64,000 nt of DNA from Gaiellales bacterium (GCA_033856675.1 JAWVEN010000004.1:93532-157531); one strand, 5' to 3'. Counted from the first letter of the stretch, positions 4,584 to 25,294 are shown. A program made the numbers and translations. Notes: a model not told the origin generated them from the letters alone.

Positions 4584-4805
4584 CTAGATCGCTTCGACCC
4601 GCTCGACGTACCACACGATCCAGGCGCCCTCGGTCTTCTCGGCCTGGACAACCCGCGCCCCAGGAGGGAACGGCACCTCGGTCCACTCGCGGCTGAGCCC
4701 GCGGACCCCGCTCAGTTCCTCCCTTTGCACCATCATGAACGGGATCACGATCCTCGAAAGGACCGCATTCTCCGTCGAACCTTCAAGATCGTCGGCATCA
4801 GTCAT
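4584..4805 (-). CDS. Hypothetical small protein (73 aa)
   Basis: Internal ATG of ORF 4584..4976, preceded by GAAGGA 7 nt upstream. GC3-rich codons. This start avoids overlap with moeA. No recognisable family. Confidence 0.4.
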   Translation of the reverse strand: MTDADDLEGSTENAVLSRIVIPFMMVQREELSGVRGLSREWTEVPFPPGARVVQAEKTEGAWIVWYVERVEAI

Positions 4806-4848
4806 GGGCGATCCTTCGCCGCGGCCCATCACTATCCTTGATGTCGAG

Positions 4849-6066
4849 ATGAGCGAGTTCTTCACGGTGCGGACGGTGTCCGACGCGATCGCCGGCTTTC
4901 GCCCGCCGCACCGCACGGCCGTCGAGCAGATCGGAGTCGCCGACGCATTCGGCCGAGTCGTCGCCGCCACGGTCACCGCGCCCGGGCCTCTGCCTGGCTT
5001 CTCTCGCAGCGCCGTTGACGGCTATGCCGTCCGCTCGGCCGACACGCATGGCGCCGGCGAGGGCCTTCCGGCTTACCTCGATCTCAACGGCGCCGTCCGC
5101 ATGGGTGAGCTGCCCTCGGACGGCGTGGGTCCAGGGAGCGCCATGGAGATGCCGACCGGCGGAGCGCTCCCGGAGGGAGCCGATGCCGTGGTCATGGTGG
5201 AGCACACGGCGGCGGTCGACGAGCGCCGGATCGAGGTCACGCGGTCGGTGGCCTCGGGAGACAACGTCATCAGGATGGACGACGACGTCGCAGAGGGCGC
5301 CACGCTCGTTCGCGAAGGGCATCGGCTGCGCCCGCATGACATCGGGCTGCTGGCGGCCGCGGGCGTCGTCGAGGTGTCGGTGCATCGACCCCCTGTGGTC
5401 GCACTGATCTCGACGGGGGACGAGGTGGTCGACGCAGCTGAAACACCCCAGGGTGCGCAGGTGCGAGACGCCAATGCCCCCGCGCTGTCTGCGCTGGTGC
5501 GCGAGCTGGGCGGCGAGGCGCTGGCCTTCGGCATCGTGCCGGACGACCCCGAACACCTCGAGCGTGTCTGCCGTGAGGCGCTCCAGCGCAGCGACGTGGT
5601 GGTTGTGTCGGCCGGCTCGTCGGTGGGAGCACGGGACGCGACGGCCACCGTCGTCGAGCGCCTCGGCGAGCCTGGGGTGTGGTGCCACGGGCTCGCCTTG
5701 AAGCCGGGCAAACCCACGCTGCTGGCCGATGTCGGCGGCAAACCGGTGATTGGCCTTCCCGGCAATCCCGTTTCCGCTCTCGTCGTGATGCGTCTGGTGG
5801 GCGGTCCGGTAGTGGCCCGAGCCGGCGGACAGACCGAGGATCCGGTGCCGCCGCTGGTCCACGCCAGACTGGCGCGGAACGTCGCCTCGACCGCCGGTCG
5901 CACGGACGTCGTGCAGGTGGCGTTGCGGGGCGACGAAGCGGTGCCGCTGTTCGGGAAGGCCGCGTTGCTTTCGGTGATGACCCGTGCAGACGGTTTTCTC
6001 GTGATCCCCGAGGACGTCCAGGGCTTTGCCGAGGGCACGGTCGTCGACGTGGTGCCCTACCGGTGA
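4849..6066 (+). CDS. moeA: Molybdopterin molybdenum/tungsten transferase MoeA
   Basis: MoeA N, linker and C-terminal domain motifs (SAVDGYAV, MPTGGALPEGADAVV, LISTGDEVV, GLALKPGKPT, GLPGNPVSA). Start trimmed to the ATG at 4849 (MSEFF...); in-frame alternatives exist at 4735 and 4804. Confidence 0.85.
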   Translation: MSEFFTVRTVSDAIAGFRPPHRTAVEQIGVADAFGRVVAATVTAPGPLPGFSRSAVDGYAVRSADTHGAGEGLPAYLDLNGAVRMGELPSDGVGPGSAMEMPTGGALPEGADAVVMVEHTAAVDERRIEVTRSVASGDNVIRMDDDVAEGATLVREGHRLRPHDIGLLAAAGVVEVSVHRPPVVALISTGDEVVDAAETPQGAQVRDANAPALSALVRELGGEALAFGIVPDDPEHLERVCREALQRSDVVVVSAGSSVGARDATATVVERLGEPGVWCHGLALKPGKPTLLADVGGKPVIGLPGNPVSALVVMRLVGGPVVARAGGQTEDPVPPLVHARLARNVASTAGRTDVVQVALRGDEAVPLFGKAALLSVMTRADGFLVIPEDVQGFAEGTVVDVVPYR

Positions 6067-9675: not shown

Positions 9676-10587
9676 ATGCCCTCCGCCGGCGCCATGCTCT
9701 GTCTTGCCTCCGCGGCCGCGTTCGCTACGTCGGCCATCTTCGGGAAGCTCGCCTACGAGCAGGGCGCGACCGTCGGCACGCTGCTGGCCTCGCGATTCGT
9801 GCTCGCCGCCGCGCTTTTCTGGCTGTTCATGGGCGCCACCGGGCGCGTCCGGCGCCTGCGCGAGTTGTCTCGCCGTGACGTGGGCATCGCCCTCGCCCTT
9901 GGCATCGTGGGCTACAGCGCGCAGTCCGGAGCCTTCTTCGCGGCGCTTCAACGTCTTGACGCCTCGCTGCTGTCACTGCTCCTCTATACGTTCCCCACGA
10001 TTGTCACCGTGGCGGCGGTTGTGCTCGGACGCGAGCGCGCCACCCGGCGCACCGCTCTGGCCTTGGCGCTTGCATCGACCGGCCTCGCCCTCGTCCTGGC
10101 CGGAGCGCGCGACGGGGCGCTGGACCTCGTCGGTGTGGGGCTCGGGCTGACGGCCGCCGTCGTCTACAGCGCGTACATCCTGACCTCCGAGGGCGTCGCC
10201 TCGCGTCTCGGGGCCCTCACCATGAGCGCGCTGGTCTGCACCGGCGCGGCGGTGAGCCTGACGTTCGGCGGCTTCGCTCTCGGCGATCTTCACCCCGGCG
10301 ACGTGAGCGCCGCAGGGTTCGGTTGGCTGGGCGGCCTCGCCGTTGTCTCGACGGTCGGCGCCATCGCCCTCTTTTTCGCCGGTCTGCAACGCGTCGGCCC
10401 GACAGCTGCGTCGATCCTGTCGACCCTGGAGCCGGTGGTCACCGTGGTGCTGGCGTTCCAGATCTTCGGGGAGTCGCTCGGTGCCGTGCCGCTGGCGGGC
10501 GGCGCGCTGGTCATCGTGGCCGTGCTCGCAGTTCGAGCCCCCATGCGCCTCGCCACTGAGCCGGCCGCCGCCGAGGCGCGCGCATAA
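9676..10587 (+). CDS. EamA/DMT family transporter
   Basis: 303 aa with 10 TM-like segments and a duplicated EamA architecture. Confidence 0.85.
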   Translation: MPSAGAMLCLASAAAFATSAIFGKLAYEQGATVGTLLASRFVLAAALFWLFMGATGRVRRLRELSRRDVGIALALGIVGYSAQSGAFFAALQRLDASLLSLLLYTFPTIVTVAAVVLGRERATRRTALALALASTGLALVLAGARDGALDLVGVGLGLTAAVVYSAYILTSEGVASRLGALTMSALVCTGAAVSLTFGGFALGDLHPGDVSAAGFGWLGGLAVVSTVGAIALFFAGLQRVGPTAASILSTLEPVVTVVLAFQIFGESLGAVPLAGGALVIVAVLAVRAPMRLATEPAAAEARA

Positions 10588-10588
10588 C

Positions 10589-11515
10589 GTGGGTGCTGTG
10601 TCGGGCCTGCTCGCCGGCAAGGTGGCGCTCGTCGCCGGCGCGACGCGCGGTGCCGGGCGTGGCACAGCGGTCGCGCTGGGAGAGGCGGGAACGACGGTCT
10701 ACTGCACCGGTCGCACGACGAGGCAGAAGCGTTCGGAGTACGACCGGCCCGAGACGATCGAGGAGACCGCCGAGCTCGTCAGTGCCGCAGGTGGCGAGGG
10801 GATCGCGGTCGAGGTCGACCACCTGGAGCCCGCGCAGGTCGAAGCGCTCGTCCGGCGCATCGACGCCGAGCAGGGCCGCCTCGATGTGCTGGTCAACGAC
10901 GTCTGGGGCGGCGAGCTGCTCATCCAGTGGAACACGCCGGTCTGGGAACACGACCTCGAGGGCGGTCTGCGGATGCTGCGGCTGGCGATCGACACGCACC
11001 TGATCACGAGCCATTTCGCGTTGCCGGTGCTGATCCGCCGGCCGGGTGGCCTGGTCGTCGAGATGACAGACGGCACGCGCGCATACAACGATCAGAACTA
11101 CCGGCTCTCGACGTTCTACGACCTTGCCAAGACGGGGGCCATCCGGCTCGCGTTCACCCAGAGCAAGGAGCTCGCGCCGCGCGGGTGCACCGCCGTGGCG
11201 CTGACACCGGGGTGGATGCGGTCGGAGATGATGCTCGACATCTACCAGGTCACCGAGGACAACTGGCGTGAAACGACCGTCGGGAGCCCGCATTTCGTGG
11301 CGATCTCCGAGACGCCGCGGTTCGTCGGGCGGGCGGTCGCCGCGCTGGCCGCCGACCCGGACGTGCATCGTCGAAACGGCGGGTCGTTCTCCTCAGGCGG
11401 CCTGGCACGCGAGTACGGCTTCACCGACGTCGACGGCTCTCAGCCCGACTGCTGGCGCTACATGGTCGAGGTGCAGGACCCCGGCCTTCCGGCGGACTCG
11501 ACCGGCTACCGCTGA
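10589..11515 (+). CDS. SDR family oxidoreductase
   Basis: Starts at a GTG just after the upstream TAA. Rossmann motif (KVALVAGATRGAGRG) and a YxxxK catalytic pair (YDLAK). The ORF-track 5' extension is out-of-gene. Confidence 0.8.
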   Translation: MGAVSGLLAGKVALVAGATRGAGRGTAVALGEAGTTVYCTGRTTRQKRSEYDRPETIEETAELVSAAGGEGIAVEVDHLEPAQVEALVRRIDAEQGRLDVLVNDVWGGELLIQWNTPVWEHDLEGGLRMLRLAIDTHLITSHFALPVLIRRPGGLVVEMTDGTRAYNDQNYRLSTFYDLAKTGAIRLAFTQSKELAPRGCTAVALTPGWMRSEMMLDIYQVTEDNWRETTVGSPHFVAISETPRFVGRAVAALAADPDVHRRNGGSFSSGGLAREYGFTDVDGSQPDCWRYMVEVQDPGLPADSTGYR

Positions 11516-13086
11516 CCGACGGGCTCGCCCGCCGGGAAGTTCCGAAGGACGCTCAGCACCGGCCCAAGGGCCACCTGACCGAGGCCGCAGATCGAGGTCA
11601 GGCGCAGTGCCTCCTCGAGCTCGGTGACCGTCTGCTCCCAGTCCTCGCGGGCCGCCGCGCCCGCACCCTCCAGGAGGCGCACCGCCTTGTGGCTGCCCAC
11701 CCGGCAGGGCACGCACTTGCCGCAGCTCTCGTTGGCGAAGAAGCGCAGCACGTTCGTCGCCAGCGCCAGCACGTCGGTGCCCTCCGCGACCGCCACCATG
11801 GCGCCCGATCCGAGCATGCTTCCGGCCTCCTGCAGCGTCGCGAAGTCGAGTGCGACGTCGGCATGGTCGGCGGGGAGGAAGTTCGACGATGCACCGCCCG
11901 GCGCGAACGCTCCCAGCGTATGGCCATCGAGCATGCCACCGGCGACATCGATCAGCTCCTCCACCGTCGTCCCCATCGGCACGCAGTAGACGCCCGGGGC
12001 CGACACGTGACCGGAGACGGAGATGAACTTGACGCCGGCGTGGCCAGGGCGGCCCAGTGCCTTCCACCGCTCCACGTCGTCGACGATCGCAGGGACGTGG
12101 TGGAACGTCTCGACGTTGTTCATCAGCGTCGGCATGCCCCACAGGCCGACGGTGCCCGGGAACGGCGGCTTGTTGCGCGGCTCGCCTCGGCGTCCCTCGA
12201 GACAGTCCAGCAGCGCTGTCTCCTCGCCCAGGATGTAGCCGCCCGGTGAGGTGAAGATCTCGATGTCGCGGTCGCCGCCGATCAGTCCCAGCTCACGCGC
12301 GCGGTTCAGCTCGGCAGCCAGCGCGTGTTCCTCGGGACCGTACTCGTGGCGGACGTAGACGATGCCCTCCTGCGCCTTCACCACCCACATGGCGAGCAGC
12401 ATGCCCTCCACCATCAGATGCGGGAGCTGGCGGAGGATCTCGCGATCCTTGAAGGTGCCTGGCTCCGACTCGTCGGCGTTGCAGATCACGTACTTCGGGC
12501 CGCGCTCCTCGGCGGCCACGAGCTTCCACTTGAGACCGGTCGGGAAGCCGGCGCCGCCCATTCCGCGCAGTCCGGAAGCCTCGAGGGTCGTAATGACGCC
12601 CTCCGGGGTGAGCTTGCCGGCCAGCGCCCGCCGGAAGACGCCGTAGTGCTCGTCGGGCGATGAGTAGGGGTCGCTGGGCCAGGTCTGGAGCGGGGTGTCG
12701 AGCGGTTCCACAGGGCGACCGTCGACGAGGTCGAGCACGTCGACCATCCGGCACGGCTCGTCGTTCACCGTGGCAGCGGGTGCACAGTCGCAGCGCCCGA
12801 TGCACGAGACGCGGCGCACCTTCACGCCCTCGCGGCCGGCCAGCGCCGCCTCGACGGAGTCGGCCTGCGCTTCACCGTCGCGGAGCCAGCAGCTCATGTC
12901 GCGGCACAGCGTCACCTCGTGTGTTGCCGCCGGCTCGGTGCGGTAGTGCGGATAGAACGACAGCAGCCCCTGTAGCTCGTAGAGCGGCCGCTGCGTCCGT
13001 CGTGACAACGCCTCGAGGTCCTCGCGGCGGAGCCAGCCGTGCTCGCTCTGGAGGTCGTTCAGGTCGTGGATCAGGGTCCGTCTCAC
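11506..13086 (-). CDS. NAD-linked formate dehydrogenase beta subunit (fused NuoE-like + NuoF-like)
   Basis: N-terminal thioredoxin-like 2Fe-2S region (CRDMSC...VSCIGRCDCAP). FMN/NADH site (GLRGMGGAGFPTGLKW) and 4Fe-4S site (ESCGKCVPCRVG). GTGA overlap with fdsA. Confidence 0.85.
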   Translation of the reverse strand: MRRTLIHDLNDLQSEHGWLRREDLEALSRRTQRPLYELQGLLSFYPHYRTEPAATHEVTLCRDMSCWLRDGEAQADSVEAALAGREGVKVRRVSCIGRCDCAPAATVNDEPCRMVDVLDLVDGRPVEPLDTPLQTWPSDPYSSPDEHYGVFRRALAGKLTPEGVITTLEASGLRGMGGAGFPTGLKWKLVAAEERGPKYVICNADESEPGTFKDREILRQLPHLMVEGMLLAMWVVKAQEGIVYVRHEYGPEEHALAAELNRARELGLIGGDRDIEIFTSPGGYILGEETALLDCLEGRRGEPRNKPPFPGTVGLWGMPTLMNNVETFHHVPAIVDDVERWKALGRPGHAGVKFISVSGHVSAPGVYCVPMGTTVEELIDVAGGMLDGHTLGAFAPGGASSNFLPADHADVALDFATLQEAGSMLGSGAMVAVAEGTDVLALATNVLRFFANESCGKCVPCRVGSHKAVRLLEGAGAAAREDWEQTVTELEEALRLTSICGLGQVALGPVLSVLRNFPAGEPVGQR

Positions 13087-15902
13087 GCCGGCTCGACCCG
13101 CACCGCACAGAACTTGAACTCGGGGATCTTGCCCGTCGGATCGATGGCGTCGTTGGTCAGCACGTTCGCCGCCGCCTCACGGAAGTGGAACGGGATGAAG
13201 CATGCCCCTTCGTTCTCACGATCGGACACCTTCGCCATGATGCGAATGCTGCCGCGCCGCGACGTGACGCGGACGTAGTCGCCGCTGCCGACGCCGATCC
13301 GGGCCGCATCCGCCGGGTGGAGCGACACCTCGGCGTGCGGTGCGATCGTGTCGAGCGCGTAGCTTCGCCGCGTCATCGACCCCGTGTGCCAGTGCTGGAG
13401 CAGCCGGCCCGTGGTGAGCACGATCGGGTACTCCTCGTCGGGTAGCTCGTTCGCCGGCAGCCACTCCGCCGGCACGAGCTTCGCGCGCCCGTCGTCGGTG
13501 CTGAAGACCCGGTCGAACAGCACGACCTTGCCGTCCGGGTTGTCCTCGTCGAGGGGATACAGCTTGCCCGGCCCCTCGATCGCTTCGTAGGACATGCCCG
13601 CGTAGCTCGGCATCATCGTGACCAGCTCGTCGAACACCTCGGAAGGCGACTCGTACTCCATCGGGTAACCGAAGCGGTTCGAGATCTCGCAGATGATCTC
13701 CCAGTCCTGACGCGCCTCGCCGGGGGGCTTCATGGCCGGCCGGCCGATCTGAACGCGCCGGTCTGTGTTCGTGTACGTGCCGACCTTCTCGAGCGCCGTC
13801 GTGGCGGGGAGGACGACATCGGCGAACTCGGCCGTCTCGGTCAGGAAGATGTCCTGCACCACCAGGAAGTCCAGGTTCGCCAGGCCCTTGCGCACCTTGT
13901 TGACGTTCGGGTCGGAGAGGAAGGGGTTCTCGCCCATCATGTACATCCCGCGCACGTCGCCGGCCAGCGCGGCCGCGACGATCTCGGTCACCGTCAGCCC
14001 CGCGTCGGGGTCGAGCTCGGCGTCCCACGCGCGCTCGAACTTCTCGCGGACATCCTCGCGGACGACGTGCTGATAGTCGGGGTACATCATCGGGATCAGG
14101 CCGGCGTCGGAGGCGCCCTGCACGTTGTTCTGCCCCCGCAGCGGGTGCAGGCCGGTGCCGGGGCGGCCGACGTTGCCCGTGATGGCGCACATCGCGATCA
14201 GGCAGCGGGCGTTGTCGGTGCCGGTGGTGTGCTGCGAGATGCCCATGCCCCAGTAGATGACGCCCGCACCGGCGCGGCCCCAGATGCGGCCGACGTCACG
14301 GATCGTGTCTGCGTCCACGCCGCAGATCTGCGCCGCCAGCTCGGGCGGATAGCGCAGCACCAGCTCGCGCAGCGCCTCGTAGTTCGACGTGCGGCCGGCA
14401 ATGAACTCCTCGTCGACGAGACTCTCGCTGACGATCACGTTCATCACGCCGTTGTAGAAGGCCACGTCGGTTCCGGGCTTGATGCGGCAGAAGATGTCGG
14501 CGTGGTCGGCGATCCGCTCCTCGCGCGGGTCGACCACGATCAGCGTCGTGCCGCGCTTGCGCGCGCCCTTGAAGAAGCTCGATGCGACGGGGTGGTTCGC
14601 CGTCGTGTTGCTGCCGGCGATGATCGCGACATTCGCGTTCTCGATGTCGCCGTATGTGGTCGACACGGCGCCGGAGCCGACACCTTCCAGCAGCGCGGCG
14701 ACGGATGACGCGTGGCACAGCCGGGTGCAGTGGTCGACGTTGTTCGTGCCGAAGCCGGCGCGGATGAACTTCTGGAAGAGGTACGCCTCTTCGTTCGTGC
14801 ACTTCGCGGAGCCGAAGCCGGCCAGCGCGCCGGGGCCGTGCTCGTCCTTGATCCCGCGCAGGCGCGAAGCCACGAGGTCGAGCGCCTCCTCCCAGGTCGC
14901 CTCGCGGAAATGCGGCAGCACCTGGTCGTAGTCGACGAGACCACCTGGCTTGCGGCCTTTGCGGGTGCCGTCGTGCTCGCCTCGCACGTCATCCGAAAGG
15001 GCGCCCTTGGGGTATGACTCCTCGCGGCGGATCAGCGGCACCGTCAGACGCTGCGAGGAGAGCGAGTAGTCCCAGCCGTAGCGGCCCTTCACACACAGCC
15101 GGCTCTGGTTGCCGGGCTGGTCACGGCCCTCGGCGAAGACGATCAGCTCGTGCTCGGGGTCGACGTGGTAGGTCAGCGCACAGCCGACGCCGCAGTACGG
15201 ACAGACCGAATCAACCTGCTTCAGCTCCGACCGTGGCCGCAGCGGCAGCGTGATGGCCTTGTTGGTCAGGGCGCCGGTCGGGCAGGCGGCGACGCACTCG
15301 CCGCAGGTGACGCAGGTGGAGTTGCCCATCGGGTCGTCGAGGTCGAAGCCGATCCGGGCCGTGTAGCCCTTCCCGGTGCGGCCGATCACGTCGTTCGACT
15401 GGATGTCGTCGCAGGCCCGCACGCAGCGGTCGCACATGATGCACGCCTGGTGGTCGACCGCGATCACGGGGTTGGAGAAGTCGTCCGGGCGGCCGTTCTC
15501 GTGCAGCAGCCGGTTCTGCCGCGGGACGCCGTAGCGGTCGGCCAGCTCCAGCAGCTCGTTGTCCGCAGTGGTGGTCTGCTTCGGATCGACCTCGGGCTGA
15601 TCCGACATCAGCATCTCGGTCAGCATCGCGCGCTGCTTCTCGACCCGCTCGGAGGCGGTCTCGACCTCCATCCCCTGCTCGCACGCCCGGACGCAGGACG
15701 CGGCCAGCACGCGCTGGCCGATGTCGACGACGCACATGCGGCAGACGCCGACGGGGTCGTAGCGAGGGTCGTGGCACAGCACGGGCACCTCGACGCCGGC
15801 CTGGCGGGCGGCGTCCCAGATCGTCGTCCCCTCGGGGACGGTGACCTCCTGGCCGTCGATGGTCAGCGTCACCGTTGCTGTGGTGGGGAGCGTCGTGCTC
15901 AT
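13083..15902 (-). CDS. Formate dehydrogenase alpha subunit (Mo/W-bis-MGD, NuoG-like Fe-S N-terminus), Cys-type
   Basis: 2Fe-2S and 4Fe-4S N-terminal modules, then a MopB formate-DH domain with active-site context HCTRLCHASSV (Cys-His). 939 aa. ATGA overlap with aor. Confidence 0.9.
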   Translation of the reverse strand: MSTTLPTTATVTLTIDGQEVTVPEGTTIWDAARQAGVEVPVLCHDPRYDPVGVCRMCVVDIGQRVLAASCVRACEQGMEVETASERVEKQRAMLTEMLMSDQPEVDPKQTTTADNELLELADRYGVPRQNRLLHENGRPDDFSNPVIAVDHQACIMCDRCVRACDDIQSNDVIGRTGKGYTARIGFDLDDPMGNSTCVTCGECVAACPTGALTNKAITLPLRPRSELKQVDSVCPYCGVGCALTYHVDPEHELIVFAEGRDQPGNQSRLCVKGRYGWDYSLSSQRLTVPLIRREESYPKGALSDDVRGEHDGTRKGRKPGGLVDYDQVLPHFREATWEEALDLVASRLRGIKDEHGPGALAGFGSAKCTNEEAYLFQKFIRAGFGTNNVDHCTRLCHASSVAALLEGVGSGAVSTTYGDIENANVAIIAGSNTTANHPVASSFFKGARKRGTTLIVVDPREERIADHADIFCRIKPGTDVAFYNGVMNVIVSESLVDEEFIAGRTSNYEALRELVLRYPPELAAQICGVDADTIRDVGRIWGRAGAGVIYWGMGISQHTTGTDNARCLIAMCAITGNVGRPGTGLHPLRGQNNVQGASDAGLIPMMYPDYQHVVREDVREKFERAWDAELDPDAGLTVTEIVAAALAGDVRGMYMMGENPFLSDPNVNKVRKGLANLDFLVVQDIFLTETAEFADVVLPATTALEKVGTYTNTDRRVQIGRPAMKPPGEARQDWEIICEISNRFGYPMEYESPSEVFDELVTMMPSYAGMSYEAIEGPGKLYPLDEDNPDGKVVLFDRVFSTDDGRAKLVPAEWLPANELPDEEYPIVLTTGRLLQHWHTGSMTRRSYALDTIAPHAEVSLHPADAARIGVGSGDYVRVTSRRGSIRIMAKVSDRENEGACFIPFHFREAAANVLTNDAIDPTGKIPEFKFCAVRVEPA

Positions 15903-17668
15903 GCAGGCACCAGATCCTTCGCCTCGACCAGTGGGAAGCCCTGCTCATCCCAGCCGCGGCGGAGGTTGTACTCGCGCACCATGCCGGCGAGCCGCTCGCG
16001 GGGCAGGGTCACCGTCGTCCCGGCACCCGTCTGCAGCGGCTCGTCGAGGAACCGGTCGGGCAGGGTGTCCTGGTCCGGCGTCCAGCCATGGCTCACATTG
16101 AACAGCTTCTTGGTCGTCACGATCCTCCCCGCCACCTGGCCCAGCTCCTCGGCGTCATAGTCGCAGCCGGTGACAGCGTTGAGCAAGGTCGCCCATTCGA
16201 TTCTGGCATCAGTGAACACTCCGCGAAGGAATTTGCAGAGGATCATGCTGTCTATCAGGGCGGCGTTGTCCTCGGTGTCGATTGCCGCGACGACGGAGTC
16301 CGTTCCGCCGTGCAGACGGTCGACTCGCTGCGAGAAGTCGGCCTCGTACGCGCCCGAGCGATTGTGGTCGGCGCCGCGGGCGTTGACGGCCAGGCCGAGC
16401 GCCATCGACTGCAGCGTCCGCGGCTCGTAGCCGGGCAGCTCCAGGCCCTTGACCTGGGCCGCAAACGAGATCGCATCACCGCCGAGGTGCTCCGCCAGGC
16501 GGCGCGACCCCATGCGAAGGAGCGGGCCGATCCCCTCACCGCTGCCGATCTCGCCGAGCGCGCGCAGCAGCGCCTCACCCGAGCCGAAGCGGAGCCACGG
16601 CGCGTCCAGCAGCCCGCGTTCGACGCACTCCATCGCAAAGGCGATCGTCCCTCCGGCAGAGATGGTGTCGATGCCGAGCGTGTCGCACAGGCGGCTGGCC
16701 TCGACGACCGCGGCCGGGTCACCCACGCCGCACAGTGGCCCCAGGGCAAAGGCGTTCTCGTATTCGAGCCGAGCGCCGTTGCCGTCGGCGGTCTCGTAGA
16801 TGTGCCCGCAGCCGATGGTGCACGAGGCACAGGAATGGCGCGTGCGCTGCTTCAGCTCGGAGGCCTGCTCGGCGGAGAGCGCCGCGGCTCCCTCGAAGGT
16901 GGCAGCCTGGAAGTTGCGGGTCGGAAGCGTGTTCAGGGCGTTGAAGGCAAGGAGGTTTGCAAGCGTCCCGAGCTCGCGGTACTTCTCGGTGGCCGGCCCG
17001 AATGAGCGAGTGCGCAGGTCTGCGGCGATCTCGAGCACCCGTTTGGGGTCAGCCAGCGGGACGGGTGTCCTGCCGCGCACCGCGATGGCCTTGACGTTCT
17101 TCAGTCCGAGCACCGCGCCGTGGCCGCCGCGGCCGGCGTGGCGACCATCGTGCGACACCGTGGCAAAGGGCACCAGCCGCTCGCCCGCCGGGCCGATGGC
17201 GGCGGCGCGAAATCCGCGCCCGAGCCGGGCGCGCAGATGCTCTTCTGCGTCGCCGGCGGCAAGCCCCATCAGATCGCCGGCCGGTTCGAGCCATGTGGCG
17301 CCGTCGTCGATCACCACCACGCTGGGCTCGGCCGCACGGCCGGTCAGCACGATGGCGTCGTGCCCGGTCATCTTGCCCTGGATCGCGAAATGGCTCGACG
17401 CGAGGGCATCGTTCAGCAGGCCCGTCAGCGGCGAGCGCGCTACCACCGCGAACTTCGCGCTCGTGGTCAGCGGCGTCCCCACCAGCGGCGAGAAGACGAA
17501 GGCGATCGGGTCGCCCTCCGGCTCGGCGGTGGTCAGGATCCAGGCGCCGAGCCCGGCCCCGCCGATGAAGCCGCGGCGCACAGCGTCGGGAATCGGCATG
17601 CCCTCGGCGGTGCCGGTGTCGAGGTCGACCCGCAGATACCGCCCAAACCCGCCGCCGATACCGCTCAT
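15899..17668 (-). CDS. aor: Aldehyde:ferredoxin oxidoreductase family protein (tungstopterin type)
   Basis: AFOR N-terminal opening (GRYLRVDLDTG...GGAGLGAWIL) and a 4Fe-4S ligand cluster (HSCASCTIGCGH). 589 aa, typical of the AOR family. Confidence 0.85.
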   Translation of the reverse strand: MSGIGGGFGRYLRVDLDTGTAEGMPIPDAVRRGFIGGAGLGAWILTTAEPEGDPIAFVFSPLVGTPLTTSAKFAVVARSPLTGLLNDALASSHFAIQGKMTGHDAIVLTGRAAEPSVVVIDDGATWLEPAGDLMGLAAGDAEEHLRARLGRGFRAAAIGPAGERLVPFATVSHDGRHAGRGGHGAVLGLKNVKAIAVRGRTPVPLADPKRVLEIAADLRTRSFGPATEKYRELGTLANLLAFNALNTLPTRNFQAATFEGAAALSAEQASELKQRTRHSCASCTIGCGHIYETADGNGARLEYENAFALGPLCGVGDPAAVVEASRLCDTLGIDTISAGGTIAFAMECVERGLLDAPWLRFGSGEALLRALGEIGSGEGIGPLLRMGSRRLAEHLGGDAISFAAQVKGLELPGYEPRTLQSMALGLAVNARGADHNRSGAYEADFSQRVDRLHGGTDSVVAAIDTEDNAALIDSMILCKFLRGVFTDARIEWATLLNAVTGCDYDAEELGQVAGRIVTTKKLFNVSHGWTPDQDTLPDRFLDEPLQTGAGTTVTLPRERLAGMVREYNLRRGWDEQGFPLVEAKDLVPA

Positions 17669-18492
17669 CCGCCGGCCTCCGCCGTCAGCAGGGACAGCCG
17701 GTCGCCCGAGACCAGCGGCGTCTGCGGGTCGGCGTGGAACCGCTCCCCGTTCAGGGCCACGAGCGAGTGGGGCAGCAGTGCCGCCAGGCCGTCGAGTCGC
17801 TCGATCGCATGGCCGACGGTCGCTGCGGGCACCGTGGTTCGCGCGAACCCGAGCCGCTCGCGCAGGGTGCCGAACGCCTCGACCTCGATCTCGGGCTCCG
17901 GCTCGGCCAGCGCGGCCTCGTACTCCTCGCGGGTGTTCAGGTTGCGTAGCGACCCCGGCTCGTCGATGTCTCCGTCCTCGAGCCGGCGCACCGCCGCGCC
18001 GTCGAACAGGAAGGCCGGCCGCAGCCGGTCCTGGGCCAGCAGGCGCTCGACGGACGCAAGCAGCGACAGGCGGTAGGCCGCCGAAAGTGGGTGGTTGTGG
18101 CCGTCGGCCACCGGCAGCACGACGTCGTGCCCGTTCAGCGCCCGGGCGATGCTGCGCACGAAGCGCGGATGCAGGAGCGGGACGTCCACGCTCGAGACGA
18201 ATGCGACGTCACAGCGGCCCTCCAGCGCACGCATGCCGGCGGCGATGCCCTCCAGCGGGCCCCGGCCCGGGTTGCGGTCGACGATCAGCTCGACGCCCGG
18301 CAACGGCGGCAGTTCCTGGCCTTCGGCGTGCACCACGACGACCGGCGACGCCACGCGACCCAGCAGCCCGGTGACGCGGCGAACCAGCGGAGCTCCGTGC
18401 CAGTCGAGCATCGCCTTCGAGGCCCCCATCCGGGTTGAGCGGCCACCGGCGAGGACGATCGCCCCCAGCTCGATGTGTTCATCCGGCCTCAT
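17665..18492 (-). CDS. mobA: Molybdenum cofactor guanylyltransferase MobA fused to a C-terminal MoaD/ThiS-like domain
   Basis: MobA motif (LAGGRSTRMGASKAML). The last ~80 aa (IEVEAFGTLRERLG...LVALNGERF...VSGDRLSLLTAEAGG) have the MoaD/ThiS beta-grasp pattern and end in Gly-Gly immediately before the stop. Confidence 0.75.
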   Translation of the reverse strand: MRPDEHIELGAIVLAGGRSTRMGASKAMLDWHGAPLVRRVTGLLGRVASPVVVVHAEGQELPPLPGVELIVDRNPGRGPLEGIAAGMRALEGRCDVAFVSSVDVPLLHPRFVRSIARALNGHDVVLPVADGHNHPLSAAYRLSLLASVERLLAQDRLRPAFLFDGAAVRRLEDGDIDEPGSLRNLNTREEYEAALAEPEPEIEVEAFGTLRERLGFARTTVPAATVGHAIERLDGLAALLPHSLVALNGERFHADPQTPLVSGDRLSLLTAEAGG

Positions 18493-18535
18493 GGCGTTCC
18501 TCCGGCACCAATGGTATCGGTGAACGCGCTGCTTC

Positions 18536-20023
18536 TCAGTCGGTCAGCTCCCGCCCACGGCGCCGGAGAACCCGCTCGTCGCCGGTTCGGCGGGTGATTC
18601 CGTCGGCGTCGAGGCGTTCCAGGATGGCCTGTGCGTAGCGCCGCGACACCCCCAACCGGTCGCGCAGGGAGGCGATCGTGAGCGATCCGCTCCCGGTTGC
18701 GATGTCGACGGCCGCACGCCGCGCTTCGGCGAATGCGTCGGCGGTGAAGGCGAGGTCGCGCCCGCAGCGCACGATCCGGCCGGTCCCGGCGAGGTGCGCC
18801 GCCGCGGCCTGCTCGGCGGCCGTCAGCGGCGGGGGCGAGAGCGGCTCGGCGGCAAGGCGGGGATACAGCTCGTCGGCTCCTTCCGGCGACGGCAGCCGTG
18901 GAGGTGGCGCGGCTACGGCCGCCGCAGGCTCCGGGCGCGGCCTGCCGCTTCGGGTCGGCGCCGGGTCGAGCACCACACCGCCGGCCACCGTGGTGCGAGG
19001 CGCGGTCGAACGGATCACGACGCGGTCGCCGGCGGCGGCCACGGCCGGCCGCTCCAGGCGCAGCTGGACGACCCCCTCGGACCCACGTTCGACCGCGTCG
19101 CCGGCTCGGACGGCAACCCGTGCCGGCAGCTCCGCGGTTGCATGGTGCACCGTCACGGGCTCGCCGTGACGAAGCCCACCCACGACCTCGGGCAGCACGG
19201 TGATCCGGCACTCGAGGCGGTGCGACAACGACAGCGTGCCCGCGGTCAGGACGACATCGCCGCGAGTGACCTTCGTGCGCTCCACGCCGACCAGCGCCAG
19301 GGCCACCCGCTGACCGGCGCCGGCCGCATCGACGGCCTGATCGTGCACCTGCACGCTTCGCACGCGCACCTCGCGGCCGCCCGGCTCGATCGTCAGCATG
19401 TCCCCGGGCCGCACGGTGCCCGACCACAGCGTGCCCGTCACCACCGTGCCGATCCCGCGCAGGGTGAAGGAACGGTCGACCGGGAGCCGCACCGGGCCGT
19501 CGCCTCCGCGTGTCACGGCCCCGCCGGCCAGCCGGTCCAGCTCGGCGCGCAGCTCGTCGATCCCCTGCCGCGTGGTCGCAGAGACCTCGACCACGCGGAG
19601 GCCTGGGAACAGCTCCTCGACCTCCATGCGCACGATTTCGGCCGTCTCTGCGTCGACGAGGTCACGCTTGGTCAGCGCGACCACCCCGCGGTCGAGGCCA
19701 AGCAGGCGAAGGATGGCGAGGTGCTCCCGTGTCTGGGGCATGACCCCGTCGTCGCAGGCAACGGCGAGCAGAAACAGGTCGATCCCGGTCGCACCGGCCA
19801 CCATCGTGCGTACGAACCGCTCATGCCCGGGAACGTCGACCACCGAGAGCCTGCGCCCCGAGGGCAGCTCGAGCGGGGCGTAACCGAGCTCGATCGAGAT
19901 ACCGCGTGACTTCTCCTGCGGCAGGCGATCGGTGTCGACGCCGGTGAGCACGGCTACCAGTGCCGTCTTGCCGTGGTCGATGTGGCCGGCCGTGCCGAGC
20001 GTGAGGGGACGACTGTCGCTCAT
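18536..20023 (-). CDS. selB: Selenocysteine-specific elongation factor SelB
   Basis: GTPase motifs ([21 protein letters not shown]), EF-Tu-like domains II/III and C-terminal winged-helix repeats. Sits 5 nt downstream of selA. Confidence 0.9.
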
Positions 20024-20028
20024 GCCGC

Positions 20029-21336
20029 TCAGCCCCGAGTGATCTGCTCGGACTCCTCGTCGGTGAGCGTCCGGCAGTCCAGCAGCACCCGGCCTTCCTG
20101 GACGCGGGCGATCACCGGCGGGTCGGCGGCGCGAAGCTCCGCGGCCAGCTGATCCCCACCTTCGAGCGCGCAGGCAAAGCTCTCCAGCTCCAGCAGCGGC
20201 AGCGCTCCGCCTCCCACCCGGGCGTTGGTCTGCACGACCTCGCCTCCCAGCCGGGCGGCGAGCCGCTCGGCCCGTTCCCGCACGGTCTCGGCCGGCGCAG
20301 CGGCCATCGCGAGCACGGGGACGCGGGCGACCGCCCTGGCGGGATCGCCGTACAGCTCGAGCGTTGCCTCGAGGGCCGCGAGCGAGAGCTTGTCGATGCG
20401 CACTGCTCGAGCCAGCGGGTGTCCCCGAAGCTTGGAGATTGCGTCCGTGCCGCCGGCGACGATGCCTGCCTGCGGACCGCCCAGCAGCTTGTCGCCCGAG
20501 AAGCAGACCAGGGTCGACCCCGCCTCCACGCTGGCGCGTGCGGTCGGCTCGTCGAGCAGGTCGGGGAGGTCGATCAGCGCACCCGAGCCGAGGTCGTCGA
20601 TCAGCGCGAGATCGTGCCGGGCGGCAAGGTCGGCGAGCTCGCCGAGCTCCGGGCGCGACGTGAAGCCGATCATCCGGAAGTTCGACTGGTGCACGCGCAG
20701 CACCGCCCGCGTCTCCTCTGTGATCGCCCGGTCGTAGTCCGCGAGTGTCGTGCGGTTGGTGGTGCCGACCTCGACCAGCCTCGCGCCGGAGCGGGCGAGG
20801 ATGTCGGGGATGCGAAACCCGTCCCCGATCTCGATCAGCTCACCGCGGCTGATCACCACCTCGCCCCCGGCGGCGAGCGCGGCGAGCGACAGCAGCAACG
20901 CGGCGGCGTTGTTGTTCACGGCCAGCCCGGCGTCGGCGCCCGTCAGCCGGGCGAGCAGACCGGAGAGGTGATCGTGCCGCGAGCCGCGCCGCCCTTCGCC
21001 GAGGTCGTACTCGAGCGTCGAATAGCCGGAGGCCACCTGGCGCACCCGCTCGAGCGCCTCTTCTGCCAGCGGCGCCCGGCCGAGGTTGGTGTGCACGATC
21101 ACGCCGGTTGCGTTGATCACCCGTCGTAGGCTCGGCGCGGTATCGAGCCGGGCCCCTGCGTCGGCCAGGAGCTCGGCGGGTGATCGTGGTCCCCCACTCG
21201 CTCGCGCGGCGGCCAGTGCGTCGCGCAGCGCGGCGACTGCAGCAGGCCGGCCATGACGGCCGATCAACCCCGTTGCCTCGGGCGTCCGCAGCAGTGCGTC
21301 GACCGACGGCAGCTCGCGAAGCGGGTTCGCCGTCAT
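20029..21336 (-). CDS. selA: L-seryl-tRNA(Sec) selenium transferase SelA
   Basis: N-terminus [16 protein letters not shown] and the PLP-lysine motif [13 protein letters not shown]. Start trimmed to the ATG at 21336; the ORF-track extension to 21555 is R/P/A-rich and overlaps the divergent gene. Confidence 0.9.
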
Positions 21337-21359
21337 GAAGCCGATTGTAGGCTGTACAC

Positions 21360-22364
21360 GTGGCGACCAGCAGGCGGCCCCCTCTCTACACGATGCAGGC
21401 CGGCCCTCCGCGCCGGCGCCGGCGCCCATTCCTCTCGCCTTTCCGGCTGGCCGCGCTGATCGTCGTGCTGGTGGTGCTCGGCGCGTTCGCGGTGATGGTC
21501 TGGCGTGTGTTCCCACTGACGGATCGCGAGGCGGGCGCCATCCCCTCGAGCGCACTGACGGGCAGGGGCGCGCCGTCGAACGGTGGAGCCGAGCCGGCGC
21601 CCGCCGGGATGGCGCCGCTTGAGCTTCGCGGAGCGTCGAAGCGGGCGCTGCCGGGCGTGCAGGCGACGTCCGCCATCCTGGTGGATGCGGAGAGTGGTCA
21701 GGTGCTGTGGGCTCGCAGGCCGCATGCGAAGCAACCGGTCGCGAGCCTGACGAAGTTGATGACGTCGCTCCTTGCCGAGCGCGGCGGCGGCCTGCGGCGC
21801 GAGGTCACGATCACCGAAGCGATGACCAATGACCTCGGCTACACGATCGGCCTCAATCCAGGCGACACGATCAGCGTTCGCGACCTCCTGGCGGCCACGA
21901 TGATTGCGTCGGCGAACGATGCCTCTGATGCCCTCGCGGTCTACCGGTCCGGGTCGATCAATCGCTTCGTGAAGCTGATGAATGCGGAGGCGAAGAAGCT
22001 CGGCCTGTCGGACAGCCGCTACTCCAATCCCTCCGGGATCATCGACACCGGCAACCACAGCTCGGCGTGGGATGTCGCCGACCTGTCCCGGCTGTACATG
22101 ACTCGGCCCGTGCTGGCACGAATGGTGGGCATGAAGCTCTACCGGCCGGCGACCGGCTCGTCGTACGTCAGCCGCAACCGGCTCCTGTGGGACGAGCCGA
22201 CCGCGATCGGTGTCAAGACCGGCAGCACCGACCTGTCCGGCAAGTGCCTTGCGGCAGCGGCGCGGCAGGACGGACGACTGCTGATCGCCGTCGTGCTGGA
22301 TGCGAACGGCGACGAGTTCGCGCAGGCGCAGACGCTGCTACGGTGGGGCTTCAGGCAGCCGTGA
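21360..22364 (+). CDS. D-alanyl-D-alanine carboxypeptidase (S11, PBP5-like)
   Basis: SxxK (ASLTK), SxN (SAN) and KTG (VKTGST) motifs plus an N-terminal TM/signal segment. Start is GTG 21360 or ATG 21393. Confidence 0.85.
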   Translation: MATSRRPPLYTMQAGPPRRRRRPFLSPFRLAALIVVLVVLGAFAVMVWRVFPLTDREAGAIPSSALTGRGAPSNGGAEPAPAGMAPLELRGASKRALPGVQATSAILVDAESGQVLWARRPHAKQPVASLTKLMTSLLAERGGGLRREVTITEAMTNDLGYTIGLNPGDTISVRDLLAATMIASANDASDALAVYRSGSINRFVKLMNAEAKKLGLSDSRYSNPSGIIDTGNHSSAWDVADLSRLYMTRPVLARMVGMKLYRPATGSSYVSRNRLLWDEPTAIGVKTGSTDLSGKCLAAAARQDGRLLIAVVLDANGDEFAQAQTLLRWGFRQP

Positions 22365-25294
22365 GCTCGCCGGCCGGATTGTTCGACGGGTACCGCATCC
22401 TGGCGCCACCCTTCGGTGCAGAAGACGGTCGCCGGCTGGCCCGGGAGCTGTTCGGGGTGGATGGCGAGTCGACGGAGCTCGGCAGCCACCAGGACCGCAA
22501 CTTCAGGATCGTCCCAGCGGATGGCGACGCCGTCGTTCTGAAGATCGCGAACCCGCACTTCGGGCGCCCGTCGCTGGAGATGCAGAACGCCGCGATGGGG
22601 TACCTGGCCGGCGCCGGCCTGCCATTCGCAACCCCGCGGCCGGTGCCGTCACTCGACGGACGGCTGATCGTGCCGGTGGAGCGCGACGGGCTCGAGTACG
22701 ACGTGCGGATGGTGGGCTACCTGCCGGGTGAGCCGCTGACGGCGTGCGGCCATGTGTGCCCGTCGGCGCGCGTCGCCTACGGCAGGATGGCAGGCCGGAT
22801 TGCCCTCGCGCTCGCGCCGTTCGACCATCCAGCGGCCGACCGGGTCCTGCAATGGGATTTGAAGCATGCCCGCGCGGTGGTGGACGAGCTCGTTCGCTAC
22901 GTTGCCGATCCCGAGCGGCTGGCGCTCGTCGATCGCGCGATGCGGACGCACGACGCCGCCATGGAGCGCCTCGCGCCACAGCTCCGTGTCCAGGTGATCC
23001 ACGGCGACGTGACCGACTACAACGTGCTTGGGGAGCGCGACGCCGCGGGGCGGCTCCAGCCCACCGCGGTGATCGACTTCGGCGACATGACCCGGTCATT
23101 CCTCGCCGGAGAGGCGGCCGTGGCCGCGGCGGCGCTGGCCGGCCGTGACCCCGAGACGGCGCTCCAGACCATCGCCGACGTCGTGCGTGGCTTCCACGCC
23201 GAGCTGCCGCTGAGCGAGCCGGAGCTCGCGGCGGTGTTTCCGCTCGTCCTCGGCCGGGCGGCGTCCGGGGCGGTTTCGACAGAGCAGCAGGCGGGTCTCG
23301 AGCCCGAAAACCGCTATGCGAACGACCTGATCGACATCGACTGGGGCAATCTCGCCGCGGTCGCAGGGATCGATCCGGCCCTCGCCGAGGCGGCGATCCG
23401 AGCGGCCTGCGGGCTCGACCCCCATCCCGGCGCCGCGGGCGTGCACGCGTTCCTGCGTGGACGGCGGTTCACGCCGCCGGTCGATCCCGCGGGGCGGCGC
23501 CTGACACTGGCCGACCTCGGCGTCGCGTCGGGCAGCTACGCGTTCGGCGAGTGGGAGACAGCCGAGGGTGTCGCCCGCGCAGCCGGTTCGGCCCCCGGCG
23601 AGCTTTCGATCGGCCGTTACGGCGAGGCGCGGCTGCACCGCTCCGTGACGGGTGATGCCGCTGAGCCGCAGACCGTGCATCTGGGTGCCGACGTGTTCGC
23701 AGCCGAAGGTGAGCCGGTGCGGGCGCCACTCGCGGGCATGGTGATCTCGGTCGAAGGGGACCGGCTGACGATGCTGCTCGAGCCCGACGGCGTGCCGCCG
23801 GTGTACCTCCTCTTCGAGGGGATCAGGGCGAGCGCCCCACCGGGGCCGGTGTCCGAGGGCGAGCGGCTCGGCGAGGTGGCCCCCGCCGGGGGCCGGCCGC
23901 TTCCGCACCTGCATCTCCAGCTCGCCCTCGCCGACGTCGAATCGCTTCCGGGATGGGCCCCGCCGTCGCTTCGGGATGCCTGGCTGGCACTCTGCCCCGA
24001 CCCTTCGCCGCTGCTTGGCATTGACACGGCCGTGCACGAACCGCGTGCGTCCGACCTGCTCGTCCGCCGGCGCGGCGTTGTGGCGGGAGCCCAGCGCACG
24101 TACTTCGAGCAGCCGCCGGAGATGGTGCGTGGCTGGCGCAACCGGCTCTACGACGCCGACGGGCGTGAGTACCTCGACATGGTCAACAACGTCGCGGTGC
24201 TCGGGCACAGCCACCCGGCCGTCGCCGACGCGGCGACCCGCCAGATGCGCCTGCTGAACACCAACTCCCGGTTTCTGCTGAGCAGCATCACCCGGTTCGC
24301 CGAGCGGCTCGCCGAGCTCGTCCCCGACCCGCTCGGCGCGGTTTTTCTGGTCAGCTCGGGCAGCGAGGCGAACGAGCTGGCGCTTCGGATCGCCCGTACC
24401 GTCACCGGCCGGACGGATGTCCTGGCGGTCGAGGGCGCATACCACGGGTGGACGAGCGCAACCTTCGGGGTCAGCACCTCACCGGCCGACGATCCCGATG
24501 ACCCGCCCTCATGGCTTCGCGTCGTGCCGCAGCCGAACCCGTATCGGGGGGCACTCGGCACGCAGGCGGCTCCGTACGCCGATGCCGTTCGCGACCGAGC
24601 CGCGGGCGCCGCGGCGCTGATCTCCGAGCCGGTGCTCGGCAACGCCGGCGGGGTCATGCCACCGAAGGGCTACGTCGAGCAGGCCTACGCGCACGTGCGC
24701 GAGGCGGGAGGCCTGTGCATCGCCGATGAGGTGCAGGTGGGCTACGGCCGGCTGGGCCACTGGTTCTGGGCGTTCGAGGGACAGGGCGTCGTGCCCGACA
24801 TCGTCACGGTCGCCAAGGCCACCGGCAACGGTCATCCACTCGGCGCTGTGATCACGACGCGCGAGATCGCCGACGCGTTCGGCGACCGGCACAGCTTCTT
24901 CAGCTCCGTCGGCGGCTCACCCGTGTCGTGCGAGATCGGTATCGCCGTGCTCGACACCATCCGCGACGAGCGCCTGCAGCAGAACGCGCGTGACGTCGGC
25001 GCGCGCCTGCGCGCCGGACTGGAGGAGCTGGCGGAGCGCCACGCCCTGATCGGCGCCGTGCACGGCACCGGCCTCTACCTCGGTGCCGAGCTGGTGCGCG
25101 ACCATGGCACGCTGGAGCCGGCCACCGAGGAGGCCTACGCGATCTGCGAGCGGTTGCGCGAGCTGGGCGTGATCGACCAGCCGACCGCCGACCACGAGAA
25201 CGTCCTCAAGGTGAAGCCGCCGCTCTGCATCAGCGCCGAGGACGCGGACGCGTTCGTGGCGCGGCTCGACCGGGTGCTCACCGAGGGGTGGTAG
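22361..25294 (+). CDS. Triple-fusion protein: APH/hydroxylysine-kinase-like phosphotransferase + M23/LytM-like domain + class-III (AGXT2L-like) PLP enzyme
   Basis: GTG at 22361 overlaps the upstream TGA. Kinase motifs (HQDRNFRIV, IHGDVTDYNVL, VIDFGDM). M23 motifs HLGAD (23678-23692) and HLHLQ (23906-23920). Aminotransferase-III motifs (DEVQVGYGRLG; PLP Lys in VAKATGNGHPLG at 24815-24817). Confidence 0.8.
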   Translation: MSSPAGLFDGYRILAPPFGAEDGRRLARELFGVDGESTELGSHQDRNFRIVPADGDAVVLKIANPHFGRPSLEMQNAAMGYLAGAGLPFATPRPVPSLDGRLIVPVERDGLEYDVRMVGYLPGEPLTACGHVCPSARVAYGRMAGRIALALAPFDHPAADRVLQWDLKHARAVVDELVRYVADPERLALVDRAMRTHDAAMERLAPQLRVQVIHGDVTDYNVLGERDAAGRLQPTAVIDFGDMTRSFLAGEAAVAAAALAGRDPETALQTIADVVRGFHAELPLSEPELAAVFPLVLGRAASGAVSTEQQAGLEPENRYANDLIDIDWGNLAAVAGIDPALAEAAIRAACGLDPHPGAAGVHAFLRGRRFTPPVDPAGRRLTLADLGVASGSYAFGEWETAEGVARAAGSAPGELSIGRYGEARLHRSVTGDAAEPQTVHLGADVFAAEGEPVRAPLAGMVISVEGDRLTMLLEPDGVPPVYLLFEGIRASAPPGPVSEGERLGEVAPAGGRPLPHLHLQLALADVESLPGWAPPSLRDAWLALCPDPSPLLGIDTAVHEPRASDLLVRRRGVVAGAQRTYFEQPPEMVRGWRNRLYDADGREYLDMVNNVAVLGHSHPAVADAATRQMRLLNTNSRFLLSSITRFAERLAELVPDPLGAVFLVSSGSEANELALRIARTVTGRTDVLAVEGAYHGWTSATFGVSTSPADDPDDPPSWLRVVPQPNPYRGALGTQAAPYADAVRDRAAGAAALISEPVLGNAGGVMPPKGYVEQAYAHVREAGGLCIADEVQVGYGRLGHWFWAFEGQGVVPDIVTVAKATGNGHPLGAVITTREIADAFGDRHSFFSSVGGSPVSCEIGIAVLDTIRDERLQQNARDVGARLRAGLEELAERHALIGAVHGTGLYLGAELVRDHGTLEPATEEAYAICERLRELGVIDQPTADHENVLKVKPPLCISAEDADAFVARLDRVLTEGW

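Follow-up and report, generated by a model that had tools for sequence, protein, structure and literature searches.

Profile searches, structural modelling and synteny analysis were applied to a 64 kb stretch of a metagenome-assembled genome (MAG) of a Gaiellales bacterium (Thermoleophilia, Actinomycetota; G+C ~70%), hereafter the window, and revealed that its compact array of six genes, selA-selB-mobA::moaD-aor-fdsA-fdsB, consists of two units placed side by side. The latter four genes, which encode a MobA-MoaD fusion, an aldehyde oxidoreductase (AOR) and a two-subunit formate dehydrogenase (FDH), constitute a conserved module of the Actinomycetota, and the six-gene array itself is a lineage-specific juxtaposition. 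We assign a probability of about 0.7 to the reading that selA-selB lie beside an independently transcribable tungsten-enzyme operon, within a pterin-cofactor neighbourhood of ~23 kb. A first-pass annotation of the window had instead proposed one co-regulated functional unit dependent on selenium, tungsten and molybdenum (Se/W/Mo), a proposal that is only partly supported: the gene identities and the tight packing hold, but the array is not conserved as one functional unit and selA-selB proved to be separable from the module.

All six genes are located on the minus strand: selA (20029-21336; ATG start, 435 aa), selB (18536-20023; 495 aa), mobA::moaD (17665-18492; 275 aa), aor (15899-17668; 589 aa), fdsA, or fdh1A (13083-15902), and fdsB, or fdh1B (11506-13086; GTG start, 526 aa), with which the array ends. 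A gap of 5 nt (GCGGC) separates selA from selB and one of 43 nt separates selB from mobA::moaD, while each of the three remaining junctions is a 4 nt overlap (ATGA between mobA::moaD and aor and again between aor and fdsA, GTGA between fdsA and fdsB). These coordinates and junctions are exactly those given in the first-pass annotation, whose family assignments were likewise borne out by Pfam and NCBIfam matches. The G+C content at third codon positions (GC3) is 0.87-0.94 across the array, and the six open reading frames (ORFs) are real, constrained genes, since each displays a dN/dS value of 0.10-0.17 against its orthologue in a 90%-identical relative (L081). The earlier remark that no obvious internal terminator is visible also held: the terminator scan produced none between the array genes, its two overlapping matches (against 2.4 expected from shuffled sequences) both falling within the mobA coding sequence, and the junction regions folded no better than shuffles (z ~0).

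The first-pass annotation had suggested a gene-neighbourhood search, and this was performed by scanning one genome per species with the AOR as query. The scan yielded 80 loci (61-67% identity), nearly all of them in Actinomycetota; counts were derived from tblastn and ORF analysis, and only loci with enough flanking sequence were counted. A MobA-MoaD fusion ending in Gly-Gly is encoded in 73 of the 78 loci with sufficient upstream sequence, no more than 100 nt from aor in 71 of the 73. Downstream, fdsA followed by fdsB is present in 63 of the 66 loci with sufficient sequence, and fdsA lies within 300 nt of aor in 52 of the 63 (median gap 22 nt). Nine loci contain 0.7-5.6 kb of other genes (moeA, tupABC, a regulator) between aor and fdsA, and in three loci aor has no FDH nearby. 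The carriers include Kribbella, Nocardioides, Pseudonocardia, Kibdelosporangium, Amycolatopsis and Nonomuraea, as well as MAGs assigned to Aeromicrobium, Nitriliruptoraceae, Solirubrobacterales, Thermoleophilaceae and Gaiellales. The four-gene module, which recurs in about 70 of the 80 loci, is thus widespread, whereas the six-gene array is not conserved as one unit; nor is the neighbourhood unique to this genome, as L081 possesses an identical six-gene array.

No description of an operon joining AOR to this type of FDH (FDH1) in Actinomycetota was found in the literature searched, a limited library. A study of 2026 sorted over 4,000 tungsten oxidoreductases (WORs) into five gene-context classes, none of them FDH-linked, and does not mention actinobacteria (PMC13328260); its supplement gave no matches for six actinobacterial genera. 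The component families are all known; the conserved tungsten module of four to nine genes and the fusion of MobA to a WorX-like domain are the parts worth following up.

The product of mobA::moaD combines a MobA guanylyltransferase domain (residues ~1-198) with a ThiS/MoaD β-grasp domain (residues ~199-275, ~77 aa) that terminates in AEAGG. The MobA domain matched NTP_transf_3 (PF12804; 1e-33) and scored below the equivalog cutoffs of the NCBIfam MobA models (116 vs 205 bits). In an AlphaFold2 model computed from the database protein sequence (pLDDT 93, pTM 0.91), the N-terminal domain superposed on E. coli MobA with a target-normalised TM-score of 0.83-0.85. The C-terminal domain alone matched ThiS at 22.7 bits (cutoff 22.5), and 35 of 39 orthologues also matched ThiS; profile matches in the PDB were weak (4e-4 for ThiS, 0.14-0.15 for MoaD). 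The terminal Gly-Gly is invariant at the C-terminus of the fusion protein, the orthologues in module loci (285-296 aa) ending in SADAGG. WorX is a ThiS-like protein of unexplained role that is encoded beside many single-subunit tungsten oxidoreductases (PMC13328260). By its sequence, the C-terminal domain corresponds to the WorX of AOR clusters and is a predicted sulfur carrier with a free Gly-Gly. Public records label the fusion as MobA only.

The aor product is a large subunit (WorL) of the AOR/WOR family (AFOR_N, PF02730, 1.8e-52; AFOR_C, PF01314, 1.3e-100). It is identical to the Gaiellales MAG protein MDX6590949.1, and its best PDB match is the AOR of Pyrococcus furiosus (PfAOR; 323 bits). 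Alignment with 1aor revealed that T243, E313, Y427 and H448 (PfAOR numbering) are retained, together with the four [4Fe-4S] cysteines (PfAOR C288, C291, C295 and C494) and the DxxGxD pterin motif. The module and the window contain neither a WorS polyferredoxin gene nor one for a stand-alone ferredoxin, and genes for WorN, WorABC or an FAD subunit are absent from the array. The arrangement is that of WOR Class I, namely WorL alone with a ThiS-like WorX nearby, here in the form of the MobA fusion. In two Planctomycetota MAGs (L054 and L070), an unfused moaD-like gene precedes an AOR that is 62% identical to that of the window, with no FDH nearby, which suggests that an AOR-WorX pair was horizontally transferred out of the Actinomycetota.

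FdsA scored 785 bits against TIGR01591 (Fdh-alpha; cutoff 666), bears a NuoG-like Fe-S N-terminus and gave a full-length alignment (1038 bits) with the alpha chain of the Methylorubrum extorquens tungsten-FDH (MeFDH1; 7vw6/7e5z). The FdsA proteins of Cupriavidus and Rhodobacter scored 612-623 bits against that of the window, over the catalytic part only. FdsB is a fusion of a NuoE-like [2Fe-2S] domain to a NuoF-like FMN/NAD domain (Pfam 2Fe-2S_thioredx, Complex1_51K, SLBB and NADH_4Fe-4S), and ends just past the NADH_4Fe-4S domain (residue 518 of 526); its best PDB match, again over the full length, is the MeFDH1 beta subunit (7e5z; 361 bits). No further FDH subunit genes were found among the array and its annotated flanks, and fdhD was not detected in the window by tblastn with the FdhD of locus L018. 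The NAD-type FDH proposed in the first-pass annotation is therefore correct as to enzyme family, but the fdsA/fdsB naming, which implies the FdsABG type, is not, as there are two subunits and a NuoE-NuoF fusion. On sequence grounds the genes are better named Fdh1A/Fdh1B, of the MeFDH1 type, with MeFDH1 as the closest solved relative.

The residue that ligates the metal in FdsA is Cys396 (HCTRLCHASS) rather than selenocysteine (Sec), and Cys occupies this position in 71 of 71 orthologues. Three other assignments were considered and rejected: an FdsABG(CD)-type FDH, given the fusion of the NuoE-like to the NuoF-like part and the lack of fdhD in the window; a Sec-type ancestor of FdsA, which is unsupported with Cys in every orthologue; and a bifurcating Bfu-type complex, or WOR Class IV, as WorS is missing and FdsB has no extra ferredoxin domain.

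Turning to the first two genes, SelA matched TIGR00474 at 519.5 bits (cutoff 267.9) and the Pfam families SelA and Se-cys_synth_N, with a dN/dS of 0.16 against L081. SelB matched TIGR00475 at 363 bits (cutoff 242.25) and Pfam GTP_EFTU, D2, Beta-barrel_SelB and SelB-wing_3, and its best PDB matches are the SelB proteins of E. coli (257 bits) and Aquifex (225 bits), compared with ~134 bits for EF-Tu. Judged by their dN/dS values of 0.16-0.17, selA and selB are functional. The SelB is a short form (495 aa, against 614 aa in E. coli and ~690 aa in L018) in which EF-Tu-like domains I-III are accompanied by a Pro/Ala-rich linker and, of the winged-helix domains, just the last can be detected; this short version (488-500 aa) is kept in all Gaiellales relatives under purifying selection.

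The first-pass annotation had coupled these Sec genes to the adjacent Mo/W enzymes, a coupling that the data speak against. None of the six array ORFs contains an in-frame TGA, and a search of the window for hidden selenoproteins (TGA flanked by open frame of high GC3) returned only antisense shadows and gene junctions. Together with the Cys in all 71 FdsA proteins, the lack of any in-frame-TGA gene in the window implies that the adjacent enzymes need no Sec machinery. No tRNA-Sec gene (selC) was found in the window, where ARAGORN and an Rfam scan at gathering thresholds gave no RNA genes at all; ARAGORN did detect tRNA-Sec in L018, so the method works. Searches of the window by tblastn for selD (with the L018 SelD) and for a Sec-containing FDH (with that of L032) gave only weak paralogous matches to fdsA. 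The selA-selB pair probably serves a selenoprotein encoded outside the window, most likely a respiratory Sec-FDH of the actinobacterial type.

The separability of the two units is directly visible in the synteny. Among the 80 genome loci, selA adjoins the module in none and selB in only four. Seven closer relatives, retrieved via the protein database, all have the S11-peptidase gene and then selA-selB upstream of mobA. L081 has the identical six-gene array and L082 has selA-selB-mobA-aor adjacent, both spaced like the window. L083, L084 and the contig carrying P0133 have an opposite-strand DUF11-type gene (~810 aa) between selB and mobA, and in L085 and L086 selA-selB-mobA occur with no aor or FDH genes. 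The intervening DUF11/CLIPPER-domain gene (6329-8770 in L083, 5516-7960 in L084) is absent from the window, L081 and L082; in L085 and L086, which are frameshift-rich long-read contigs with fragmentary gene models, mobA is followed by msrB-like and other genes.

A second, distant group, Streptosporangiaceae-like, also carries sel genes upstream of mobA (L018, L011, L020 and L044). In L018 (5055-9145), selD (minus strand), tRNA-Sec (6094-6188), a long selB, a DUF6457 gene and a truncated FdhD gene (minus strand) precede mobA::moaD-aor-fdsA-fdsB, with no selA within 10 kb; in the Streptosporangiaceae MAGs L011, L020 and L044, the 3' end of selB is located upstream of mobA, at the contig edge. 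The divergent long SelB of these loci was detected with the L018 SelB as query and missed with that of the window. In five further loci (L031, L032, L037, L055 and L060), a respiratory FDH with a Sec(TGA) codon (NF041513, 1451 bits, cutoff 1400) and its 4Fe-4S and NrfD-like subunits are divergent from mobA, on the opposite strand ~4-9 kb upstream of aor, so that these genomes hold a Sec-FDH and a Cys-type FDH1 side by side. The vicinity of the sel genes is thus best explained by a tendency, in this phylum, of genes that support FDH (mobA, fdhD, sel genes, Sec-FDH) to lie loosely grouped.

A scan with the sigma-70 consensus found no promoter, although this consensus is ill-suited to actinobacteria of 70% G+C. 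In actinobacteria, the -10 element follows the rule TANNNT. The hexamer TACAAT (21344-21349, minus strand) is located 7 nt upstream of the selA ATG, and TACAAT or TAGAAT stands at the equivalent position in L081, L082 and L083; it is a candidate -10 element, and selA-selB are probably transcribed from this predicted leaderless promoter. The 43 nt spacer between selB and mobA (18493-18535, minus strand) contains TACCAT (18511-18516) and a Shine-Dalgarno sequence, GGAGGA (18498-18503), and forms no hairpin better than shuffles. A TAC(A/C)(C/A)T hexamer lies 17-30 nt before the mobA start in the window and in L081-L084, whether selB or the DUF11 gene is upstream, and constitutes a weak but consistent candidate for a promoter of the module's own. 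In the three relatives in which an opposite-strand gene splits selB from mobA, the module must indeed have its own promoter.

The surroundings of the module point to tungsten. At lower coordinates in the window, and within the wider cofactor neighbourhood, a moeA gene for a metal insertase (4735-6066, plus strand; Pfam MoeA_N, MoCF_biosynth, MoeA_C) is followed by a moeA-PBP_like fusion of the MoeA1 type (6063-8003, plus strand; NF011068, 724 bits, cutoff 534; MoeA domains and PBP_like). Clustering of flanking ORFs placed such a tandem in 55 loci, usually on the same strand directly after fdsB; in the window the pair is inverted and 3-7 kb from the enzyme genes. A specificity for tungstate has been proposed for MoeA-PBP fusions, which co-occur with TupA (PMC11733289), and MeFDH1 has a strict requirement for tungsten as well as for a dedicated MoeA (PMC13197769). 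The link of MoeA-PBP to TupA, the tungsten dependence of MeFDH1 and the MoeA genes together suggest that an island of tungsten-cofactor and enzyme genes is the most economical reading of this context.

A substrate-binding protein gene, TupA-like in L032, is present in nine loci. In L032 (Pseudonocardia charpentierae), moeA-related genes, tupABC-like genes and a GntR-PBP_like regulator gene lie between aor and fdsA, the TupA-like match being under the NCBIfam equivalog cutoff (218 vs 400 bits). Within this insertion (13319-16911), a GntR-HTH regulator is fused to PBP_like and accompanied by TupA-, TupB- and ATPase-like transporter genes; the GntR-PBP_like protein is a candidate tungstate-responsive regulator of the module.

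Several points weigh against the reading of two juxtaposed units. The loci were picked by AOR similarity, and the counts cover this FDH type only at loci that have an AOR. The internal promoter rests on one short hexamer, while the six genes are operon-tight here and in L081 with no terminator, and a read-through single transcript is possible. Sel genes adjoin the module in two distant lineages, an adjacency that may reflect an unrecognised functional link rather than loose FDH-centred clustering. Finally, fdhD, which MeFDH1 requires (PMC13197769), is missing from the window, and tungsten is preferred over molybdenum on homology and context only, in a window that lacks tupABC. The tight junctions (5 nt, 43 nt and three 4 nt overlaps, with no terminator-like structure), the identical array of L081, the contiguous selA-selB-mobA-aor of L082 and the sel genes upstream of mobA in the distant L018, L011, L020 and L044 would all suit a single functional Se/W/Mo operon, in which the adjacent enzymes either depend on the Sec machinery or are co-regulated with it. 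We nevertheless regard this as very improbable, and as the least supported option, in view of the Cys in 71 of 71 FdsA proteins, the six ORFs free of in-frame TGA, the absence of selA beside the module in all 80 genome loci, the opposite-strand gene that parts selB from mobA in three relatives, and the lack of selC and selD in the window.

Two further alternatives concern the enzymes themselves. The AOR could dock on the FDH alpha and beta subunits to form a two-headed tungsten enzyme, which would oxidise aldehydes (perhaps formaldehyde) and formate through one Fe-S chain and one FMN/NAD+ site. The adjacency of aor and fdsA in 52 of 66 loci (median gap 22 nt, with a 4 nt overlap here and in several relatives), the lack of WorS or stand-alone ferredoxin genes in the module or window, and the precedents of WorABCSL (PDB 9mqx; PMC12318220) and AorABC (PMC9304861), where an AOR-family enzyme is coupled to a NuoF-like or FAD module that reduces NAD, are all in line with such docking. 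Yet the MeFDH1 alpha/beta dimer is active with no AOR attached (PMC13197769), every NAD-linked WOR known so far employs the WorS connector that is missing here, and the nine loci with 0.7-5.6 kb between aor and fdsA, like the three without a nearby FDH, also count against it; we consider the docked enzyme quite unlikely. It is also unlikely, in our estimation, that the module is a molybdenum system of mostly aerobic soil bacteria in which the resemblance to tungsten enzymes is a matter of ancestry only. Sequence cannot tell Mo from W, the window has no tupABC, the TupA-like match of L032 is sub-cutoff, and use of Mo has been suggested for part of the AOR family, the E. coli YdhV class (PMC13328260). 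However, the closest characterised FDH is strictly tungsten-dependent (PMC13197769), MoeA-PBP and Tup-like genes occur in or by the module in relatives (PMC11733289), and the AOR resembles the aldehyde-oxidising tungsten AORs and not the YdhV type.

Under the preferred reading of selA-selB beside a separate tungsten-enzyme operon, we infer the individual steps, including the substrates of both enzymes and the acceptor for the electrons of the AOR, from knowledge of the families. SelA and SelB would make Sec-tRNA(Sec) and deliver it to the ribosome. MobA would provide the FDH with its bis-MGD pterin cofactor, the MoaD-like domain may aid dithiolene/pterin sulfuration for the AOR cofactor, and MoeA-PBP would insert tungstate. 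The single-subunit AOR/WOR would then oxidise aldehydes, and the two-subunit Cys-type FDH would oxidise formate with NAD+. We propose that AOR and FDH are expressed together on account of their common metal and cofactor pathway.

Tungsten enzymes are still associated chiefly with anaerobes and thermophiles. Only recently was an enzyme of the AOR family first purified from an obligate aerobe (PMC13328260), and the module described here (MobA-WorX, AOR, MeFDH1-type FDH, MoeA, MoeA-PBP and sometimes Tup) suggests that tungsten-dependent oxidation of aldehydes and formate may be common in soil. Cultured soil genera that carry it (Pseudonocardia, Kribbella, Nocardioides and Amycolatopsis) offer test organisms. 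The covalent MobA-WorX fusion provides a clue to the role of WorX in cofactor maturation and corrects the annotation habit of recording the fusion simply as MobA. A caution also follows, in that sel genes beside an FDH do not imply a selenoprotein FDH. If the two-headed enzyme were to prove true, the AOR would be a third, catalytic subunit of the FDH, and the five published WOR classes would gain a sixth that is linked to FDH and occurs widely among aerobic soil Actinomycetota.

The array is flanked by unrelated genes, a convergent short-chain dehydrogenase (SDR) gene on the fdsB side and a divergent S11 carboxypeptidase gene, 23 nt from the selA start, on the other. The SDR gene (10343-11515, plus strand) overlaps the stop region of fdsB by 10 nt (11506-11515), which leaves no intergenic room for a terminator there; it is missing at the corresponding position in L081. 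Beyond the peptidase side, an ORF on the plus strand (22067-25294) fuses an APH-type kinase, a weak M23 peptidase match and a class-III aminotransferase domain, an architecture also present in L081 (977 aa). At the far end of the pterin-cofactor neighbourhood, a canonical molybdopterin synthase is encoded as a MoaD-MoaE fusion (26908-27552, minus strand; Pfam ThiS 61 bits, MoaE 142 bits), in which MoaD is N-terminal and its Gly-Gly hence internal. This gene adjoins an M50 peptidase gene, and both the pairing and its position relative to selA are kept in L083-L086.

Comparison with characterised systems places each part of the array. The mycobacterial selD / selC-selA-selB locus by a Sec-containing fdhA (PMC13449736) likewise has contiguous same-strand selA-selB near FDH genes. 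In that locus selC is directly upstream of selA (PMC13449736), whereas the window has no selC upstream of selA and no selD nearby, its neighbouring FDH is a Cys enzyme of another type, and its SelB is of the short, 495 aa form. The MoeA1-PBP fusion that co-occurs with TupA (PMC11733289) has its equivalent here in the tandem of moeA and moeA-PBP_like, and relatives have the pair directly after the FDH genes, sometimes with tupABC-like genes; that study made no connection to an AOR-FDH operon, and in the window the pair is inverted and 3-7 kb off.

The A. mobile WorABCSL (PDB 9mqx; PMC12318220) and the Aromatoleum AorABC resemble the module in that an AOR-family gene is linked to NAD+-reducing NuoE/NuoF/NuoG-like proteins. 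They differ from it in that the module has no WorS polyferredoxin and its NuoG-like subunit is a complete FDH; moreover, the bifurcating BfuB of WorABCSL has an extra C-terminal 2x[4Fe-4S] domain, which the NuoF-like subunit here lacks. MeFDH1 (M. extorquens Fdh1AB; PDB 7e5z, 7vw6) shares the two-subunit composition, the NuoG-like/bis-MGD alpha subunit, the NuoE-NuoF beta subunit and the Cys rather than Sec ligand. The alpha alignment begins at MeFDH1 residue 67, its first ~60 residues having no counterpart here, and MeFDH1 needs fdhD and mobB (PMC13197769), neither of which is in the window; the genes described here, by contrast, follow those for the MobA-MoaD fusion and the AOR in a conserved operon. 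Finally, the Class I WORs (P. furiosus AOR, Brevibacillus BmWOR; PMC13328260) also consist of a single large subunit with both AFOR domains, without WorS, and have a ThiS-like protein encoded directly upstream. Here that protein forms the C-terminal part of a MobA fusion, the carriers are for the most part soil Actinomycetota, and aor is conserved beside an NAD-linked FDH and MoeA genes, a context that distinguishes the module from all five published WOR classes.

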